A stretch of 64,000 bases of DNA from Escherichia coli (lineage in GTDB: Bacteria > Pseudomonadota > Gammaproteobacteria > Enterobacterales > Enterobacteriaceae), in NCBI RefSeq assembly GCF_044324875.1, contig NZ_CP172185.1; one strand, given 5' to 3'. Below the pieces are notes generated by a model that saw only the letters and a list, made by a program, of their open reading frames with translations, searched no databases and was not told the origin of the DNA. Position numbers and translations under genes: made by a program. This document shows, piece by piece, positions 2,554 through 32,489 of the stretch (the first letter of the stretch is position 1; each line of letters starts with the position of its first letter).

Positions 2554-3393
2554 ATGAAAGACAATCCGCTGATCTCAATCTATATGCCGACCTGGAATCG
2601 CCAACAACTGGCGATTCGGGCGATAAAATCGGTCCTGCGCCAGGACTATAACAACTGGGAGATGATCATCGTGGATGATTGCTCCACCTCCTGGGAACAA
2701 CTCCAACAGTACGTCACCGCCCTCAACGATCCGCGTATCACTTACATTCACAACGACATTAACAACGGGGCGTGCGCGGTACGTAACCAGGCGATTATGC
2801 TGGCGCAAGGGGAATATATCACCGGGATCGATGATGATGATGAATGGACCCCCAACCGTCTGAGCGTCTTCCTCGCCCATAAACAGCAACTGGTCACACA
2901 CGCCTTTTTGTACGCTAACGACTACGTTTGCCAGGGCGAAGTCTATTCCCAACCGGCAAGTTTGCCACTGTATCCCAAATCGCCGTATTCACGCCGCCTG
3001 TTCTACAAACGCAATATCATTGGCAATCAGGTCTTTACCTGGGCGTGGCGTTTCAAAGAGTGTTTGTTCGATACCGAACTGAAAGCGGCACAGGATTACG
3101 ACATTTTCCTGCGGATGGTGGTGGAGTATGGCGAACCGTGGAAAGTGGAAGAGGCGACGCAGATCCTGCATATCAATCACGGTGAAATGCAGATCACCTC
3201 GTCACCGAAAAAATTCTCCGGATACTTCCACTTTTACCGTAAGCACAAAGACAAATTTGACCGCGCCAGCAAAAAATATCAGCTGTTTACCCTCTACCAG
3301 ATCCGCAATAAACGCATGACCTGGCGCACTTTGCTGACGCTGCTGTCGGTGCGTAACGGCAAACGTCTGGCTGATGGTATTCGGGGGCGCTAA
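2554..3393 (+). CDS. wcaA: Colanic acid glycosyltransferase WcaA (GT2 family)
   Basis: 279-aa ORF; DxD-type GT2 signature (IIVDDCS, GIDDDDEW); position in conserved wca gene order. Confidence 0.88.
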   Translation: MKDNPLISIYMPTWNRQQLAIRAIKSVLRQDYNNWEMIIVDDCSTSWEQLQQYVTALNDPRITYIHNDINNGACAVRNQAIMLAQGEYITGIDDDDEWTPNRLSVFLAHKQQLVTHAFLYANDYVCQGEVYSQPASLPLYPKSPYSRRLFYKRNIIGNQVFTWAWRFKECLFDTELKAAQDYDIFLRMVVEYGEPWKVEEATQILHINHGEMQITSSPKKFSGYFHFYRKHKDKFDRASKKYQLFTLYQIRNKRMTWRTLLTLLSVRNGKRLADGIRGR

Positions 3394-6300: not shown

Positions 6301-7047
6301 ATGTTGCTTAGCATAATCACTGTCGCGTTTCGTAACCTCGAAGGGATAGTCAAAACACACGCCTCGCTGGCGCATCTGGCGCAGGCGGACGATATCAGCT
6401 TCGAATGGATTGTTGTCGATGGCGGTTCCAATGATGGCACCCGTGAGTATCTGGAAAATCTCAATGGTATCTTTAACCTACGCTTTGTCAGCGAGCCAGA
6501 TAATGGTATCTACGACGCCATGAACAAAGGCATTGCGATGGCACAAGGCAAGTTCGCGCTGTTTCTCAACTCGGGCGATATTTTTCATCAGGATGCCGCA
6601 AATTTTGTCCGTAAGTTAAAAATGCAAAAAGATAACGTGATGATCACCGGCGATGCGCTGCTGGATTTTGGCGACGGGCATAAAATTAAACGTAGCGCCA
6701 AACCGGGTTGGTATATTTATCACAGCCTGCCCGCCAGTCATCAGGCGATATTTTTTCCGGTATCCGGCTTGAAAAAATGGCGTTATGACCTGGAATATAA
6801 AGTTTCTTCCGACTACGCGCTGGCAGCCAAAATGTATAAAGCCGGTTATGCATTTAAAAAACTCAATGGCCTGGTGTCTGAATTTTCTATGGGTGGAGTA
6901 TCTACCACCAATAATATGGAATTATGTGCTGACGCCAAAAAAGTCCAACGGCAGATATTGCACGTGCCTGGCTTTTGGGCTGAATTATCCTGGCATTTAC
7001 GCCAACGTACTACCTCAAAGACGAAAGCCTTATATAACAAAAGCTGA
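6301..7047 (+). CDS. wcaE: Colanic acid glycosyltransferase WcaE (GT2 family)
   Basis: 248-aa ORF; GT2-like N-terminus (ITVAFRN...[10 protein letters not shown]); conserved order. Confidence 0.88.
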
Positions 7048-23095: not shown

Positions 23096-24100
23096 ATGAA
23101 AGTAATTGTAAATAATTTTTTTGATGGTATTTTGAAAAGAGGAATACCGATCTATACTTCTGAACTTGTGCAAAAGTTAAGAGACAATAATGTTCAGGTT
23201 ATTTATGTTGCATGTCCAAAAGCATTCCATAAGCTGCCTTCATGGTTTCTGAATGTTCTTTTTATAATAGTAGAGCAGCTTTTAATACCAATTATGGGTA
23301 TATTTTATAGAACTAAGTATAATATATATCCCTATAATAGTAGTTCCATCATTGACTTGTTATTAGGTAAGGCAATTGTTATAATTCATGACTTCATTAG
23401 TCTTAAGAAAAATAAACGAAATCTTGCTGCCATTTATGTGAAAGTCTGTATTTATTTTTCATCTTTTTTAGCAAAGAAAGTAATATTTATTTCTCAAAGC
23501 ACTCAGCGAGTATCTAAGAGAATATCGCTATTTAAGTGTATAGAATCTATCCTGCTCCCAAATCCATTTTTCTCATTTGAGAAAATTGCTAATGTTACCG
23601 AAATAAAAGATCTTGGATATTTACTTCTAGTTTCAGGTTTAGGGGATAATAAGGATCTAGGCACAGCTCTGGACTATTATTTTTCAATCCCAAGGGAAGA
23701 AAGAATACCATTAAAAATATTAGGTTGTGGGAATGGTATTAGCAAGGTTAACGACTTAATTGATGGGCGGGATACAGATAAAGAAATTGAAATTATTGGT
23801 TTTGTTTCTTTAGAGGAAGTCGTCAAACTATATTGTAATTCTAAAATTGTTTGGGCTCATTCGCTTGCCGAGGGGTATGGAAGGACTTTAGCTGAAGCAA
23901 AACTCACATGCAAAAATGTTATATGCACACGGATCTCTGCTTTCCGCGAACAAAAGGATTCGAATATTTTCTTTTATACTTACTATTCTGAGTATTATGA
24001 AGTCTATTCATACTTGGTAGATAATTCACCCAGTGTCGAAAGGAAAGCTCTGCATGAACATATTTTATTTGAAAATGAATTGAGAAAGATTTATGAGTAA
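23096..24100 (+). CDS. O-antigen glycosyltransferase (GT4-like, probable mannosyltransferase)
   Basis: ORF 23063..24100; start taken at ATG 23096 (MKVIVNNFF...). AT-rich with Lys/Ile/Asn-rich codon usage; C-terminal EGYGRTLAEAKLTCKNVICT resembles the GT4 E-x7-E region. Confidence 0.7.
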   Translation: MKVIVNNFFDGILKRGIPIYTSELVQKLRDNNVQVIYVACPKAFHKLPSWFLNVLFIIVEQLLIPIMGIFYRTKYNIYPYNSSSIIDLLLGKAIVIIHDFISLKKNKRNLAAIYVKVCIYFSSFLAKKVIFISQSTQRVSKRISLFKCIESILLPNPFFSFEKIANVTEIKDLGYLLLVSGLGDNKDLGTALDYYFSIPREERIPLKILGCGNGISKVNDLIDGRDTDKEIEIIGFVSLEEVVKLYCNSKIVWAHSLAEGYGRTLAEAKLTCKNVICTRISAFREQKDSNIFFYTYYSEYYEVYSYLVDNSPSVERKALHEHILFENELRKIYE

Positions 24101-25295
24101 TATTGATATAAATAAGAAACAGATATTAGTTTTGACTCCACGGTTCCCGTTTCCTGTCATTGGTGGGGATCGATTACGTATCTATAAGATCTGTAAAGAA
24201 CTGTCTAAGCATTATGATCTTACGTTGCTGAGTCTGTGTGATAAACGCGAAGAGCTCAACTATGAATATGATCGTGAAGTTTTTAGTAGTGTTCACAGAG
24301 TATATCTTTCAAAGAAAAAATCTATTTTAAATGTCATATTCTCTTTGTTTTCAAATACTCCCCTACAGATTGGGTATTATAAATCTAAAGAATTTGAAGA
24401 TAAACTTAAGCAGTTATTACCTGAACATTCTGCAACTCTTTCACATTTGATAAGGGTTGGTGATTATGTGAAAGAGAATAAAGATATAAATTTTTTAGAG
24501 ATGACCGATGCCATTTCACTTAATTATAAACGAGTAAAGGAAAAAGCATCTTTATTGAGTTTAAAAACATTTGTATATTCTTTTGAACAAAAAAGACTCG
24601 AACGATATGAGCGAACTATAAATAACAAGTTCAGCTTGACTACTTTGGTATCACAGGTTGACTCCGATTATTTATATCCAGACCGTCCGAATAATGTATT
24701 AGTCTGTGGAAATGGTGTTGATGCCGTTAGCTTACCTTTTTCAGAACGAAAAATAGCTAAAGATAAAAAGATAACCCTTGTATTTATAGGTAATTTATAT
24801 TCTTTGCAAAATATGGATGGTGTGAGATGGTTCACCAAGGAAGTTTTACCATTTCTTAACAAGCATGGTAATTTTGAATTTAAGGTCATCGGACGTATTA
24901 CAGATAAAGATAAGAGTTGGTTAGAAAGCCAGCCTGGCGTTGTTGTCACAGGTGAAGTTGATAGCATAACTTATGCAGCAGCTGATGGGCATATTGGTGT
25001 ATGTCCTATTAGATTAGGGGCAGGTATCCAAAATAAGGTACTTGAATATATGGCGTTGGGATTACCTTGTATCTCTTCTACTGTAGGCTTTGAAGGCTTG
25101 GGAGCAGAGGAGGGTAAGGAGATTTATGTTGCCAATACAAAAGAAGAATATTTACGTGTATTAAATTATTTTATAACAAATCTGGATAAATATACCGAAA
25201 CAGCATTAGTTGCGAAAAAGTTTATCGGTGAGAATTTTTCATGGGAAGCTAAATTGAGCCCATATATCCAGAAAATTAAGGAGTCTGTTAAATAA
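24093..25295 (+). CDS. O-antigen glycosyltransferase (GT4 family)
   Basis: 400-aa ORF; GT4-like C-terminal region ([38 protein letters not shown]); low GC. Confidence 0.75.
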
Positions 25296-25296
25296 A

Positions 25297-26712
25297 ATGA
25301 TTATCCCAATTATTATGGCCGGTGGTTCTGGTACTCGCTTATGGCCTCTTTCGCGTTCGTTATACCCGAAACAATTTTTATCATTGATTAATGAAAATAG
25401 TTTGCTCCAGGAAACGTTGAAGAGACTTGATGGATTAAATTGTTTGCCTCCTGTCATTGTTAGCAATAATGAGCATAGATTTATTGTTGCTGAACAATTG
25501 CGACAGTTCGGTGTGGATGACTTCCAGATTATTCTAGAACCTGTAGGTAGAAATACTGCGCCCGCCGTTGCGCTGGCTGCTCTAAAGTCTCTAGAACTCC
25601 ATGGCGATCATCATATGCTGGTTCTTGCTGCTGACCATGCTATTCAGGATATTGAAGCCTTCCATGCAGCTGTTTTAGCTGCAGAACAAGAGTCCGTTGA
25701 CAATAAGTTAGTGACTTTTGGCATCGTCCCGACCAAACCTGAAACTGGGTATGGCTATATTAAAAAGGGCGAACAAGTTAAAAACTCTGTATTTAAAGTA
25801 AATTCTTTCGTCGAAAAACCTGATTTAGAAACGGCTAAAAATTATCTCGAACAAAAATGCTATTTGTGGAATAGTGGTATGTTCATGTTCAAGGCGAGCG
25901 TATATTTAGATGAATTGAAAAAATTTCGCCCTGATATTTTAGCAGCGTGTAAAGAGTCGCTTTCCAGTGCTAGTACTGATCTAGATTTTATCAGATTAAA
26001 TTCTGATGTCTTTGCAGAATGTCCCGATGAGTCAATTGATTATGCGGTAATGGAAAAAACTCAGGATTGTGTAGTTATTCCACTTGATGCTGACTGGAGT
26101 GACATCGGTTCATGGACATCACTTTGGGAAATATCAGAGAAAGATGAACATGAAAACGTATCGCATGGCGATGTAATTAACTATAACAGCAGGAACAACT
26201 ACATTTACTCTGAAGGTTCACTGATCAGCACTGTAGGAGTTAATAACCTTATTATAGTTCAAACTAAAGATGCGCTCCTGGTAGCACAGCAAGACAACGT
26301 ACAAGACATAAAGAAGATTGTCGAAATTCTTAAAAAGCAAAAACGTAGCGAACATATATCCCATCGCGAAGTCTATCGTCCTTGGGGACGTTATGATTCT
26401 GTAGAACGTGGCGACCGTTATCAGGTAAAGCGTATTACCGTTAAGCCTGGTGAATGTCTCTCAACACAAATGCATCATCATCGAGCTGAGCATTGGGTGG
26501 TTGTCGCTGGTACTGCAAAGGTGACTTGCGGCGAACGCACTTTTTTCGTCACTGAAAATGAGTCAACTTTCATACCAATTGGCACAGTTCATACCTTGGA
26601 AAATCCAGGAAAGATACCATTAGAAGTAATTGAGATTCAGTCGGGTGTATATCTAGGTGATGATGATATTGTGCGCCTAAGTGATAAATATGGTCGTGTT
26701 GAGGATAAATAA
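25297..26712 (+). CDS. manC: Mannose-1-phosphate guanylyltransferase (O-antigen copy)
   Basis: 471-aa ORF; [13 protein letters not shown] motif and cupin C-terminus, highly similar to cpsB in protein but AT-rich at the nucleotide level. Confidence 0.9.
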
Positions 26713-26716
26713 TTAT

Positions 26717-28138
26717 ATGAATATTACCAATGATGTAATTAAAAATAGCGGAATTGCATTTGGTACAAGTGGTGCTCGTGGATTAGTGAAAGATTTTACA
26801 CCCAACGTGTGTGCTGCATTCACTTATGCTTTTATCGATGTAATGATGAAGGATTTTTCTTTTAAAGAGGTTGCGCTCGCAATAGATAATCGCCCAAGCA
26901 GCTATGCTATGGCACAAGCTTGCGCAGCAGCATTGTTGGAATGTAGTATTAAACCTATTTACTACGGTGTAATTCCAACTCCAGCTTTGGCAAATCAAGC
27001 GATTGCCGATGGGATTCCTGCAATAATGGTTACTGGAAGTCATATTCCATTTGATAGAAATGGTTTGAAATTCTATCGTCCAGACGGGGAAATTTCAAAA
27101 GAAAATGAGAACAGCATTATACATGCTGAAAAAGAGTATCCTGATGTAACTGTATTGCCAGAATTACAATGTTCAAAGCGTGCCGCTGATACTTATATCG
27201 AGAGAAACACTTCAATTTTTTCAAATATATTTAAAGGTAAACGTATCGGGATTTATGAACATTCAAGTGCGGGACGGGATCTTTATTCAGAAATATTCAG
27301 TAAGCTTGGTGCTGAAGTTGTAAGTATTGGTAGAAGTGATGAGTTTGTGCCTATTGATACTGAAGCAGTATCAAAAGAAGATGAAGAAAAAGCTTTACAC
27401 TGGTCATCTGAGTATGACCTCGATATGATTTTTTCTACCGATGGTGATGGCGATCGTCCTTTGGTTGCTGACGAAAATGGCGTTTGGTTACGGGGTGATA
27501 TATTAGGACTATTTTGCTCAAAGGCAATGAATATTGAAGCGGTAGCTGTACCTGTAAGTTGTAATACGGTTATTCAGACTTGCGGGTGGTTTAATCATGT
27601 AACGCTGACTAAAATTGGTTCACCATACGTCATTTCAGCGTTTGATTCTCTGAATAATAGTTTTGATAGGGTTGCAGGGTTTGAGGCTAACGGTGGGTAT
27701 CTTTTAGGTAGCGATGTAAATTATAACAGCGGTATGATTAAAGCGCTTCCAACAAGAGATGCTGTTTTGCCTGCTTTAATGGTACTGGCACTGGCTATAA
27801 AAAATAATGTGACTATTTCAAAACTCTTGGCGGAGTTGCCACCACGATTTACCTACTCAAATAGAGTTCAAAATTTTGCAACAAGCAAAAGTAAAAGCAT
27901 TATCGCGTCAGCTCAAGAAAATCCTCAAGAATTTATCGAAAGAATAGGCTTTGTCGATCTTCATGTACAATCGGTGGATACAATTGACGGGTTAAGATTG
28001 ACACTAAGTGATGGTTCAATAATCCATTTGCGACCGTCAGGCAACGCACCTGAATTGCGATGCTATGCAGAAGCAGATAACATAATAAAAGCTGAAAAAT
28101 TAGTGTTAGAAGTTTTGCATAAAGTTACTCTTTTGTAA
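26717..28138 (+). CDS. manB: Phosphohexomutase of the PGM/PMM superfamily (O-antigen phosphomannomutase, ManB-type role)
   Basis: ORF 26681..28138; start taken at ATG ~26717 ([22 protein letters not shown]...). [11 protein letters not shown] phosphoserine-loop-like motif and DGDGDRP metal-binding motif. Start codon uncertain by a few codons. Confidence 0.75.
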
Positions 28139-28321
28139 AAAAATATAAACTTTTTTCTACTCTTGAGCGGTTTGTCATTTAACCGCTCAGTAATAGATTG
28201 TTTATAAATTGTTTATATTTAGCATTGGTGTTTTTATTTGCGTTCATCCCGAATAAGAGATTGTAAAATTAACTGTTTCTTATTTTTCAAATGAGTTACT
28301 TCACTAGTAAAGCTAATTACT

Positions 28322-29653
28322 ATGCATAAGCAATATTATTCATTATTGTGCAATAAAATACAGTTTAAACATCTGGCTATATATTTTTCTGTATTTCTTT
28401 CACTATCCTCATGTTTCTTGTGGGGAGGGGCGGATACATTTGTATCGCAAGTGTATATTGATATTTTAGCCACTATATCTACAGCGCTATTAGTTGTTTT
28501 GATGTTCTATTATTATATTAATAGAGTTCGCTATTTATCACTAACCTTACTTTTTGCATTCGTTTTTTCTTTGATTATTGGTTTGCCATCGATTTATCTT
28601 TACTATTTTAAAAACGCAAATCATGGGTTTGAAATAATTTGTATCTGGGGGATGTTGATCAATTCCATCCTTTACTTGCAAACAACAGAGACTGTCATAA
28701 AAGAAGAAAAAAGATATTTAACTAGTTTATTTTATATTTTGTTTTCTATTGTTGCACTGTGTCAATTATACAAAATATTAATTTATCTTATGTTTATATT
28801 GAATTCAGGAGAAGGGCATTTAGCAATTTATACTGAAAGCGAAGAATTGCTATCCCAAGTTCCATTTTTTATTCGTGCTATTAGTGGTTTTGCAGTTGTA
28901 ATGTCATTGTCCACTTTTTATTTTAAAACACCGACCTACATTAAAGTTATTGCATTTGTTTTACTTGCATCTGATTTAGCTATTGGAATACGTAATAAGT
29001 TTTTCTTTTCAGTGATTTGTATTTTTATACTATATATGTACTCTAATGAGTATAGAGTAAGAAATTTATTTAAGCAACTCTCAAAACCAATATTTCTCAT
29101 CGCCGGTTTTTTATGCTTCTCGATGGTATCGTATTTCCGTGAAGGGTACCAAATCGATTTTATGATTTATATTGGCATTGTTTTAGATTCGCTATCCTCT
29201 ACTCTTGGGGGGATGCAGAATTTGTTTGATATGCAATCATCAGGATGGGATCAACTTCATCCCGCTGTGGTATTCACACAAGTATTACCGCTAAGCGGTC
29301 TTGGTTTTCTTGATGATCAACAAATCGCAAAAGATTTTTCAATAATTGTTTTAGGTGATGTATCCTCTGGTATTGCGTTGTCATCTTCAGGATTGTTAGA
29401 GTCATCGTTGCTGAGTCTAAACTTGGGAGTGATTATTTATTTACTGTATTTATCAGGGGTGATGCTTTTTATTAAATGGGGACTAAATAATCAACGGATA
29501 ATAATAAACTTTGTTGCCATCTCCATGATATCTGGATTTTTTTATGCTGTTCGTGGTGAACTGATTTTGCCATTGGCTTTTCTTCTAAAATCATTGCCGA
29601 TTGTTCTTATATCTCCATTACTTGTTAAAAATAAAATTTATCATGGTCAGTAA
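28322..29653 (+). CDS. wzy: O-antigen polymerase Wzy (polytopic membrane protein)
   Basis: 443-aa very hydrophobic, low-GC ORF with many predicted TM segments; location in O-antigen cluster. Assignment is by context. Confidence 0.65.
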   Translation: MHKQYYSLLCNKIQFKHLAIYFSVFLSLSSCFLWGGADTFVSQVYIDILATISTALLVVLMFYYYINRVRYLSLTLLFAFVFSLIIGLPSIYLYYFKNANHGFEIICIWGMLINSILYLQTTETVIKEEKRYLTSLFYILFSIVALCQLYKILIYLMFILNSGEGHLAIYTESEELLSQVPFFIRAISGFAVVMSLSTFYFKTPTYIKVIAFVLLASDLAIGIRNKFFFSVICIFILYMYSNEYRVRNLFKQLSKPIFLIAGFLCFSMVSYFREGYQIDFMIYIGIVLDSLSSTLGGMQNLFDMQSSGWDQLHPAVVFTQVLPLSGLGFLDDQQIAKDFSIIVLGDVSSGIALSSSGLLESSLLSLNLGVIIYLLYLSGVMLFIKWGLNNQRIIINFVAISMISGFFYAVRGELILPLAFLLKSLPIVLISPLLVKNKIYHGQ

Positions 29654-29694: not shown

Positions 29695-30930
29695 ATGATC
29701 AAAGAAATTTTCTCCGATGGCATTTTTTCGCTATTTAATAAAATATGTTACTTCGGTTTTAAAACACTTGCAATAATTCTGATTACTCGTTCCTTAGGAG
29801 AAGATGTAGGCGGAGAGTTCATTTTTTTAGTTGGTTTTCTCGAAGTCCTTCGGGTGGTTACTGATTTTGGTGTGGATCTGTTTGTTATAAAAAAATATAA
29901 TGATTCTACAGATAAAATAAAACTATTAAATGTAACGTTTGCACAAAAAATTCTTTCTGGAGTAATTGTTTTACTACTGTTTTGTTTGTATTCTTTTGTT
30001 CAGGGTTATCAATATAATGTCTATATTCCTATTGTGTTAGCCTTACCTGTTGCTTTATTTTTTAATTTCTCAAATAGCTATTTTCAATCTCTCAATTCCA
30101 ATAAATCTCTCACGTTTCCGATCGCAATTGCATCTATTGCAACGTGTACGATCTTCGCTATTCAGTATTTTTTAAACGTTAAATTTAACGCATGGGATTA
30201 CCTGTGTGTTGAACTATTATTCGTATCGCTGGTTACACTAAAACTATTCGTTAGTGTCAAGTTTAGGTTTATTAGAACGTCAGCTTTTGATGTGCTAATG
30301 TCAATTCTTTCTTTATATAAATATACATTAAGTATAGGTCTTACAGCTGTTGTTGTAATTATTTATAGCCGTATAGATAATTTTTATCTCAAGACATTTG
30401 CCCCAGGGGATCTTGCAGCATATGGCCAGATATTTAGGATGGTTGATCCACTGGTTATGGTTTCTTCTGTATTTTCTACAGTTGCCTATGCAAGATTTTG
30501 CCGAATTAACTTACAAGAAAAAAATGCTTTTACTAAGGTGTTTCAGTTCCTGTTATGTATTGTGGCATATGGCGTGCTGAGTTCATTAGTTTATTTCTTT
30601 ATAATAAAATACCTGGGTCATTTTGTATTGATTTCTAATGTTAATAATGATTTCTTGATAATGATGTTCTTGATTGTTGCATGTGTGAAATGTATCAATG
30701 GTGGTACAACTGCAATAATTCAGTCACAGGGGTTTTATAAAGTGGGTTTGTATGTTTCGTATGTTTGCATTTTGACATCGATACCAACTATGTATTTCTT
30801 AATAATGAAGTACGGTGTTAAAGGTGCTGCTATGACGATTCTGCTTGTAGAGTGTATTAGTTTCATATTACTTCTCTGCAGCTTTTTTATGATAAAAAAG
30901 ATGCGTCCTAAAAAAACATTCGAAATGTAA
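29695..30930 (+). CDS. wzx: O-antigen flippase Wzx
   Basis: 411-aa polytopic membrane ORF with the N-terminal pattern typical of polysaccharide-biosynthesis flippases; last gene before gnd. Confidence 0.7.
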   Translation: MIKEIFSDGIFSLFNKICYFGFKTLAIILITRSLGEDVGGEFIFLVGFLEVLRVVTDFGVDLFVIKKYNDSTDKIKLLNVTFAQKILSGVIVLLLFCLYSFVQGYQYNVYIPIVLALPVALFFNFSNSYFQSLNSNKSLTFPIAIASIATCTIFAIQYFLNVKFNAWDYLCVELLFVSLVTLKLFVSVKFRFIRTSAFDVLMSILSLYKYTLSIGLTAVVVIIYSRIDNFYLKTFAPGDLAAYGQIFRMVDPLVMVSSVFSTVAYARFCRINLQEKNAFTKVFQFLLCIVAYGVLSSLVYFFIIKYLGHFVLISNVNNDFLIMMFLIVACVKCINGGTTAIIQSQGFYKVGLYVSYVCILTSIPTMYFLIMKYGVKGAAMTILLVECISFILLLCSFFMIKKMRPKKTFEM

Positions 30931-31082: not shown

Positions 31083-32489
31083 ATGTCCAAGCAACAGATC
31101 GGCGTCGTCGGTATGGCAGTGATGGGGCGCAACCTGGCGCTCAACATCGAAAGCCGTGGTTATACCGTCTCCGTCTTCAACCGCTCCCGCGAAAAAACTG
31201 AAGAAGTTGTTGCCGAGAACCCGGGTAAGAAACTGGTTCCTTATTACACGGTGAAAGAGTTTGTCGAGTCTCTTGAAACCCCTCGTCGCATCCTGTTAAT
31301 GGTGAAAGCAGGTGCAGGCACGGATGCTGCTATTGATTCCCTCAAACCATATCTCGATAAAGGTGACATCATCATTGATGGTGGTAACACCTTCTTCCAG
31401 GACACTATTCGTCGTAATCGTGAGCTTTCAGCAGAGGGCTTTAACTTCATCGGTACCGGTGTTTCCGGCGGTGAAGAGGGGGCGTTGAAAGGACCTTCCA
31501 TCATGCCTGGTGGGCAGAAAGAAGCCTATGAACTGGTTGCACCAATTCTGACCAAAATCGCCGCAGTAGCTGAAGACGGTGAGCCATGCGTTACCTATAT
31601 TGGTGCCGATGGCGCAGGTCACTATGTGAAGATGGTTCACAACGGTATTGAATACGGCGATATGCAGCTGATTGCTGAAGCCTATTCTCTGCTAAAAGGT
31701 GGCCTGAACCTCACCAACGAAGAACTGGCGCAGACTTTTACCGAGTGGAATAACGGTGAACTGAGCAGCTACCTGATCGACATCACCAAAGATATCTTCA
31801 CCAAAAAAGATGAAGACGGTAACTACCTGGTTGATGTGATTCTGGATGAAGCAGCAAACAAAGGTACGGGCAAATGGACCAGCCAGAGTGCGCTGGATCT
31901 CGGCGAACCGCTGTCGCTGATAACCGAGTCTGTGTTTGCACGTTATATCTCTTCTCTGAAAGATCAGCGCGTTGCCGCGTCTAAAGTTCTCTCTGGCCCG
32001 CAAGCGCAGCCAGCAGGCGACAAGGCTGAGTTCATCGAAAAAGTTCGCCGTGCGCTGTATCTGGGCAAAATCGTTTCTTACGCTCAGGGCTTCTCTCAGC
32101 TACGCGCCGCGTCTGAAGAGTACAACTGGGATCTGAACTACGGCGAAATCGCGAAGATTTTCCGTGCTGGCTGCATCATCCGTGCGCAGTTCCTGCAGAA
32201 AATCACCGATGCTTATGCCGAAGATCCGCAGATCGCTAACCTGCTGCTGGCTCCGTACTTCAAGCAAATTGCTGATGACTACCAGCAGGCGCTGCGTGAT
32301 GTCGTTGCTTATGCAGTACAAAACGGTATCCCGGTTCCGACCTTCGCCGCTGCGGTTGCCTATTACGATAGCTACCGTGCCGCTGTTCTGCCTGCGAACC
32401 TGATCCAGGCACAGCGTGACTATTTCGGTGCACATACTTATAAGCGCATTGATAAAGAAGGTGTGTTCCATACTGAATGGCTGGATTAA
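31083..32489 (+). CDS. gnd: 6-phosphogluconate dehydrogenase, decarboxylating
   Basis: 468-aa ORF; N-terminal [19 protein letters not shown]-binding motif; higher GC than the flanking O-antigen genes. Confidence 0.97.

Follow-up and report, generated by a model that had tools for sequence, protein, structure and literature searches.

A position-conserved stem-loop downstream of manB in the O17/O44/O73/O77/O106 O-antigen cluster of Escherichia coli: a candidate RNA boundary ahead of wzy and wzx

[quoted passage not shown] A hairpin occupies this position in every related manB-wzy junction that we have compared; its pairing has been kept through pair-preserving substitutions, its variable positions favour the sense strand, and it lies at the boundary of an exchangeable gene cassette in an operon that begins with an ops element. 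We consider stem-loop 1 most likely to be a decayed terminator-type hairpin that forms the RNA end of the mannose-precursor gene block. With regard to its workings, we infer read-through by the transcribing polymerase, protection of RNA 3' ends, and a step-down in expression; the specific proposal that it marks the 3' end of the manB-cistron RNA and acts as a stabilising or step-down element ahead of wzy-wzx has, in our estimate, about an even chance of being correct.

The window, by which we mean the entire 64-kb stretch of E. coli chromosome that was analysed, comprises the colanic-acid cluster, galF, the O-antigen cluster, gnd, ugd, wzzB and his. A segment of 901 bp around the manB-wzy gap is 99.9% identical to the corresponding DNA of E. 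coli 042 and of 92 more complete genomes, in which the NCBI annotation places a phosphomannomutase and an 'O17/O44/O73/O77/O106 family O-antigen polymerase' on the two sides of the gap; the cluster is thus of the E. coli O17/O44/O73/O77/O106 type. These serogroups have one cluster in common that is more than 99% identical among them, and its product is a Man-Man-Man-GlcNAc backbone (PMC7685785). The features on which the following account relies are:

22985-22996, + strand: ops element GGCGGTAGCGTG in the JUMPStart leader, within the interval from galF to the first glycosyltransferase gene; RfaH loading site
23096-24100: first glycosyltransferase (GT1)
24093-25295: GT4 glycosyltransferase (GT2)
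25297-26712, + strand: manC, left half of the manC-manB cassette
26717-28138, + strand: manB, phosphomannomutase of the 473-aa type, about 23% identical to CpsG; TAA stop at 28136-28138
28139-28321, + strand: manB-wzy spacer, untranslated, 183 bp, 26.8% GC
28163-28190, + strand: stem-loop 1, nine Watson-Crick pairs plus one U·G pair, 8-nt loop, no U-tract; starts about 25 nt past the manB stop
28251-28285, + strand: stem-loop 2, AU-rich and weaker (-9 kcal/mol)
28322-29653, + strand: wzy, polymerase of the O17/O44/O73/O77/O106 family, ATG at 28322
29695-30930, + strand: wzx flippase, forming a conserved module together with wzy
31083-32489: gnd

The initial annotation had singled out an AT-rich gap of 183 bp in a cluster whose genes are otherwise tightly packed or overlapping, and both parts of that description hold. 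The gap extends from the manB TAA codon to the wzy ATG and has a GC content of 26.8%, compared with 38% for manB and 32% for wzy. From GT1 through manB the genes either overlap (GT1/GT2) or are separated by 1 bp (GT2-manC) or 4 bp (manC-manB), while further downstream 41 bp lie between wzy and wzx and 152 bp between wzx and gnd. No Shine-Dalgarno sequence is visible upstream of the wzy ATG, as is usual for wzy genes, and the start codon is conserved in the two relatives L002 and L003 introduced below. The O-antigen ManB protein (26717-28138) is itself an unusual, 473-aa phosphomannomutase; CpsG, with which it shares about 23% identity, is encoded 13 kb upstream.

A perfect 8-bp stem had been noted in this gap (gagcggtt at 28165-28172, aaccgctc at 28181-28188, with the loop tgtcattt), and it is present exactly so, but the helix is longer than first described: T28164-A28189 adds a ninth perfect pair and U28163·G28190 a tenth. 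A 39-nt segment containing stem-loop 1 folds with a minimum free energy of -15.1 kcal/mol (z = -6.1), a stability that none of 200 shuffled sequences attained. With its five G-C pairs the hairpin has the stable stem required of an intrinsic terminator. The U-tract, taken as at least five T among the eight nucleotides directly 3' of the stem, is missing from the tail in the window (GTAATAGATT) and likewise from those of L002 and L003; the site was not called by a terminator scan, and the earlier remark that no T-run follows the stem was accurate. Without a U-tract, stem-loop 1 is not an efficient intrinsic terminator.

Such a hairpin is not rare in itself. About 25 distinct perfect hairpins whose stem measures at least 8 bp and whose loop spans 3-10 nt occur in the window, so that the chance of finding one in a given 183-bp gap is about 7%. 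Within the 8.4-kb cluster stem-loop 1 ranks third by local energy, and several imperfect folds that lie in coding sequence there attain -14 to -15.7 kcal/mol. Considered within this window alone, the hairpin is not significant; its weight comes from related loci. The gap as a whole is more stably folded than its shuffled versions (z = -4.3), and it includes, besides stem-loop 1, the weaker stem-loop 2, which is retained in L002 through four one-sided changes of the G·U type. An outer helix pairing 28219-28230 with 28302-28316 is also predicted near stem-loop 2 and would end 6 nt short of the wzy ATG.

A search with Wzy yielded graded homologues of between 88% and 32% identity, and the DNA around thirteen of these was examined. 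It provided, together with the window, ten distinct manB-wzy junctions (the window, L002, L003, L004, L006, L007, L008, L009, L012 and L026); L005, a near-identical second contig of L004, stands outside this count. The gene order manC-manB-gap-wzy-wzx is retained in all ten loci, with gaps of 112-262 bp. At every one of the ten junctions the strongest 40-nt hairpin of the gap starts only 2-24 nt past the manB stop codon, with energies from -13.8 to -19.1 kcal/mol, and at each of the eight junctions that were shuffled it was better than all 100 gap shuffles. The manC-manB and wzy-wzx gaps of the same clusters, used for comparison, reach merely -2.7 to -7.3 kcal/mol. The post-manB hairpins belong to at least five sequence types with no relation to one another. 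In L006 (Ewingella-type), L008 (Salmonella Cerro) and L012 they satisfy terminator criteria inclusive of a T-rich tail, and in L026 (Citrobacter freundii) the hairpin ends in TTTT. Given these T-tailed members and the conservation of position, a terminator-type hairpin occupies the post-manB site across this cluster family, and the window carries a version of it that lacks the U-tract.

The association extends in part to other genomes that encode a ManB protein of the 473-aa type. A GTDB scan found eight such loci; a terminator-like hairpin follows manB in four of them (L014, L015, L019, L020), and in two others (L016, L017) it is weak or absent. A long downstream gap is usual with this ManB type, and a terminator-like hairpin occurs sometimes. 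The nearest relatives among GTDB species representatives (54-64% identity) come from marine Pseudoalteromonas, Motilimonas and Alishewanella, and from Buttiauxella and an uncultured Enterobacterales MAG. The hairpin after manB is not universal, as E. coli O157 provides a partial counter-example: its manB lacks a short-loop hairpin downstream and is followed instead by a 10-bp inverted repeat whose loop is long, and then by an IS remnant. In the O157:H7 strain F3113 (L027, 3400-4618) this region consists of a 287-bp gap with the inverted repeat TTGCGGTATA...TATACCGCAA, an ISAs1 (H-repeat) pseudogene and perB; the 3' side of manB is again a junction there.

How stem-loop 1 has evolved can be followed in five distinct sequences with a homologous stem, from the window, the E. 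coli strains MS20675 and WL297, and the loci L002 and L003, over 11 aligned pairs. The Wzy proteins of L002 and L003 are 88% and 70% identical to that of the window. L003 is assigned to Salmonella because its gnd is nearly identical, at 98.9% of the DNA sequence, to the gnd of Salmonella Cerro, and it is very probably the S. enterica O:6,14 counterpart of the E. coli O77 group; Wang et al. are said to have reported in 2007 that the S. enterica O:6,14 cluster matches this E. coli group. Clusters of the L003 and L004 types had no match among complete E. coli genomes.

In the five-sequence alignment 96.4% of the cells are paired, as compared with 27-49% in controls in which the partner was slid. 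All ten core pairs are kept through approximately nine substitutions over the distance from E. coli to Salmonella: in two pairs both partners have changed (U-A to G·U in L002, G-C to A-U in L003), four show one-sided changes that preserve pairing, and none of the ten is broken. Pairing is also kept in all the E. coli variants; a C-to-T change in MS20675 gives a G·U pair, and none of the six SNPs in the WL297 gap falls into the stem. Outside the stem the gap is only about 80% identical in L002 and about 51% identical in L003, below the values of the flanking genes, and, the stems excepted, it evolves about four times faster than these genes. The evidence for covariation is suggestive rather than conclusive, since there are only five distinct sequences and the observed covariation score was reached by 25 of 500 shuffles.

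The substitutions also bear on the strand. In the sense RNA the variable positions pair as G·U, which on the other strand gives C·A mismatches, and the window-type helix, when read antisense, is 81.8% paired. The strand comparison was carried out on twelve post-manB hairpins, eleven from manB-wzy junctions and one from the colanic-acid cluster; in eight of them the sense fold is more stable than the antisense fold by at least 3 kcal/mol. This sense bias in G·U pairs points to folding of the operon mRNA more than to a cruciform in the DNA or a palindrome bound by a protein. Taken together with the substitutions that preserve or restore pairing, it supports an element at the RNA level; this may be a processing site, as suggested in the initial annotation, a barrier at 3' ends or an attenuator.

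Several other identities were considered for the gap or its hairpin. In blastn searches of 5426 E. coli genomes it matched 93, in a single place each and always at this cluster; a single-copy, cluster-specific sequence of this kind is no dispersed repeat (REP/BIME, ERIC or MITE) and no IS remnant. An Rfam scan of 27900-28600 gave best scores of 13-15 bits against gathering thresholds of 44-175. A second ops/JUMPStart copy was looked for with GGCGGTAGnnTG and has no match in the gap at up to one mismatch; the hairpin arm AGCGGTTTGTCA has nothing but GCGGT in common with ops. The two small ORFs of 22 aa each (28198-28266 on the + strand, 28179-28247 on the - strand) are not conserved, and L002 carries an indel and a lost start codon in this region. 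The string TGAGCGG resembles a LacI-type operator, but its half-sites lie 12 nt apart and the sequence varies while the pairing stays. Finally, the composition of 28190-28321 (10.6% C, 14.4% G, a C/G ratio of 0.74) lacks the C-rich, G-poor bias of a canonical rut site and so speaks against one immediately after the hairpin.

The gap is an old border between gene modules. Compared with L006-L009, L012 and L026, whose hosts are Ewingella, Enterobacter, Citrobacter and Salmonella Cerro, the window proteins show identities of 51-59% for Wzy, 49-52% for Wzx and 32-36% for GT1, as against only about 23% for ManB. The ManC value of 58-60% is at background level, given that the O-antigen ManC and the colanic-acid CpsB of the window are themselves 60% identical. 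The ManC and ManB proteins of those loci are instead 73-84% identical to the colanic-acid CpsB and CpsG of the window. This split homology, in which wzy-wzx has been kept while manC-manB is of the colanic-acid type, places the edge of a cassette switch in the manB-wzy gap, between a manCB cassette that is swapped in relatives and the wzy-wzx module; one lineage has thus replaced its entire manC-manB cassette, with the right-hand edge of the replacement in the gap. The initial annotation had mentioned a recombination junction and proposed to look for a breakpoint in related O-antigen clusters. That suggestion is supported for the deep history of the locus, in the old switch relative to the L006-type loci, and does not extend to recent events within the lineage. 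The divergence of WL297 amounts to 0.7-0.9% left of the gap and 0.4-0.75% right of it, and L002, L003 and L004 diverge evenly over manC, manB, wzy and wzx; a recent breakpoint in the gap was rejected on this evenness of SNP density and identity on both sides.

Some loci of the comparison have peculiarities of their own. In Salmonella Cerro (L008, 6434-6519) the interval from wzx to the acyltransferase gene downstream is taken up by a (GCAGATA)n tandem repeat, and in Yersinia pseudotuberculosis (L010, 2924-4000) a non-coding stretch of 1077 bp precedes a Wzy homologue of 47% identity and contains, around 3010-3105, tandem copies of (TATCGTA)n, as well as an apparent transposase remnant on the opposite strand. 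The Salmonella locus L003, which is O77-like, has between wzx and gnd (6625-6894) an ORF of 89 aa with an HTH_29 domain, likely an IS remnant, that is missing in the E. coli version. In an O17/O77-type cluster from the Logan assembly ERR10430876 (L025, 5001-6572) a deletion of 2784 bp, equivalent to window positions 26296-29079 and with a microhomology of at most 1 bp, has taken out manB together with the gap and the 5' portion of wzy, so that manC runs in frame into the remaining 3' portion of wzy; it represents either a rough mutant of natural origin or an artefact of the assembly.

A second manB-type gene in the window offers a parallel. The colanic-acid cpsG (manB) gene stops at 14431, and 11 nt further on, at 14443-14466, comes a hairpin with a perfect stem of 9 bp that no T-run follows (CCCTTACCC-CACTGC-GGGTAAGGG); wcaJ starts at 14486. 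Like stem-loop 1, this hairpin has nine perfect pairs and no T-run, comes after the stop codon of a manB-type gene and ahead of a gene for a membrane protein, and belongs to a JUMPStart/RfaH-type polysaccharide operon. Unlike stem-loop 1, it has a GC-rich stem of unrelated sequence and lies in a far shorter spacer of 54 bp. MG1655 carries it unchanged, and strain 317 has one additional nucleotide in its loop; in a minority allele, exemplified by Ec1119, it is replaced by a GC-rich structured repeat of 135 nt (-59 kcal/mol), and a split match of the Ec1119 type was present in at least three genomes among the matches listed. Elsewhere in the colanic-acid cluster, the 192-bp cpsB-cpsG gap (12869-13060) contains a REP-like hairpin, GCCTGATAAGACGCGGCAGCGTCGCATCAGGC, of -22 kcal/mol.

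Intercistronic stabiliser hairpins of the REP/BIME and boxC types, such as that between malE and malF, block 3'-5' exonucleases and give unequal expression within an operon. By analogy, stem-loop 1, as an intercistronic hairpin, may be able to do the same; it differs from REP/BIME elements in being single-copy and cluster-specific. With the canonical intrinsic terminator it shares the stem with five G-C pairs, the short loop and the position after a stop codon, and its counterparts in L006, L008 and L012 qualify as such; the versions in the window, L002 and L003 differ in having no U-tract. Like the protective 3' stem-loops of Dar & Sorek, it is stable, devoid of a U-rich tract, located soon after a stop codon, and followed by untranslated RNA. 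It deviates from the rut-associated type of these authors in the composition of the spacer downstream, and also in lying inside an operon that is expected to be shielded from Rho by RfaH. [quoted passage not shown] Common to these attenuators and stem-loop 1 are the intergenic location in a long JUMPStart/ops (RfaH) polysaccharide operon and the position at the border of two functional gene blocks, directly ahead of genes that encode integral-membrane assembly proteins. The differences are that stem-loop 1 sits at a manB-wzy junction of an O-antigen cluster instead of a capsule cluster and that it lacks the T-run of a Rho-independent attenuator. The JUMPStart leader with the ops motif GGCGGTAG is present upstream of the operon.

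Four other explanations have to be weighed against an RNA boundary after manB. Stem-loop 1 could be a neutral leftover with no present function that persists only because the E. coli and Salmonella clusters have not yet diverged far enough; it would then be either a palindrome due to chance or a terminator in decay that arrived long ago with an imported manCB cassette. The abundance of perfect hairpins in the window, the third rank of stem-loop 1 by local energy, the missing U-tract, the small covariation sample and the fast drift of the gap as a whole would all suit this explanation; we nevertheless consider it unlikely, as all ten core pairs, two of them by compensatory change, have been kept between E. 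coli and Salmonella while identity over the remainder of the gap is down to about 51%, and as unrelated hairpins stand at the same place in ten of ten junctions. A classical partial intrinsic terminator or pause site, that is, an attenuator at which the hairpin itself stops or pauses some polymerases and RfaH sets the passage, seems likewise unlikely to us. It would agree with the hairpins of L006, L008 and L012 that satisfy the terminator scan, with the T tail of L026, with the upstream ops element, with the suppression of hairpin pauses and intrinsic terminators by RfaH (PMC2871177), and with the wzc-wbaP precedent in cps clusters (PMC3438125). Yet the stem has been maintained in the window, L002 and L003 with no U-run in the 3' tail, and selection in this lineage was thus independent of a U-tract. 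The attenuator overlaps with the explanation that we prefer; the sole difference is whether the hairpin produces the RNA ends or is the point to which they are trimmed back.

An internal promoter, suggested in the initial annotation, would place a sigma-70 site in the AT-rich gap from which wzy-wzx are driven independently of JUMPStart, with the hairpin as an insulator, and terminator-like hairpins as found in some relatives would indeed require either read-through or re-initiation. There is one match of 9/12 in the gap (TTGTCA-16-TAGATT, 28172-28199), and strings resembling a TGn-type extended -10 can be read near 28262. We judge such a promoter quite unlikely: AT-rich DNA gives matches of this kind by chance, promoter-like sites are not enriched (38, versus 36.8 in shuffled sequences), the lone match at 28172 is not conserved in L002 and L003, and the relatives have either no match, as on the + strand of the L004, L006 and L012 gaps, or non-homologous ones only. 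Very improbable, finally, is a site that acts at the level of DNA, be it a palindromic operator for a dimeric protein or a cruciform hotspot for recombination or insertion during cassette exchange. The position of a perfect inverted repeat of 9 bp at an ancient cassette border would be in keeping with it, as would the IS remnants beside manB or wzy in O157 and Yersinia; however, the half-site sequence varies while pairing stays, the variant G·U pairs correspond to C·A mismatches on the other strand and, in DNA, to G·T mismatches, the two sides have diverged uniformly in four relatives (WL297, L002, L003, L004), and in the 5426 E. coli genomes the sequence occurs as a single copy and at this cluster only.

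The reading that we prefer, that of stem-loop 1 as a boundary element at the 3' end of the manB RNA, draws on three lines of published work. Hairpin-dependent pausing and termination, whether intrinsic or Rho-dependent, are reduced by RfaH (PMC2871177); ops/RfaH polysaccharide (capsule) clusters are known to have stem-loop attenuators between their modules (PMC3438125); and steady-state mRNA 3' ends of E. coli are marked and protected by stable stem-loops without a U-tract (PMC6061677). Stem-loop 1 would form in the sense operon mRNA just past the footprint of a ribosome terminating at the manB stop codon, and would represent the local version of the terminator-type hairpin found after manB in related clusters. 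RNA polymerase modified by RfaH, as is to be expected in an operon with a JUMPStart/ops start, would pass the hairpin. Some transcripts may end in the untranslated AU-rich spacer, through residual termination or endonuclease cleavage, and these may be shortened as far as the hairpin, which would stabilise them. The net effect would be a message for the glycosyltransferases and manCB that is more stable or more abundant than that for wzy-wzx.

A broader generalization can be put forward tentatively, although we find it doubtful: a stem-loop after manB that is conserved in position, free of any fixed sequence, and tunable by RfaH as a step-down point might be a selected feature of mannose-polysaccharide operons in Enterobacterales. 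The data hint at such a feature in both O-antigen and colanic-acid clusters without establishing it. If it were true, the message for toxic membrane proteins (Wzy, Wzx, WcaJ) would be kept below that for the soluble precursor enzymes, and a swapped manCB cassette would recruit a hairpin or bring its own.

Stem-loop 1 does not constitute a new type of system, as stem-loops inside RfaH-controlled polysaccharide operons and protective hairpins without a U-tract have both been described already; it is ordinary operon punctuation. If our reading is right, however, it would provide a mutable handle on the expression of precursor enzymes relative to that of polymerase and flippase within an O-antigen operon, and would thus bear on the production of O-antigen chains, on the engineering of strains for glycoconjugate vaccines, and on the way in which sugar-pathway cassettes can be exchanged without breaking the expression of the operon.
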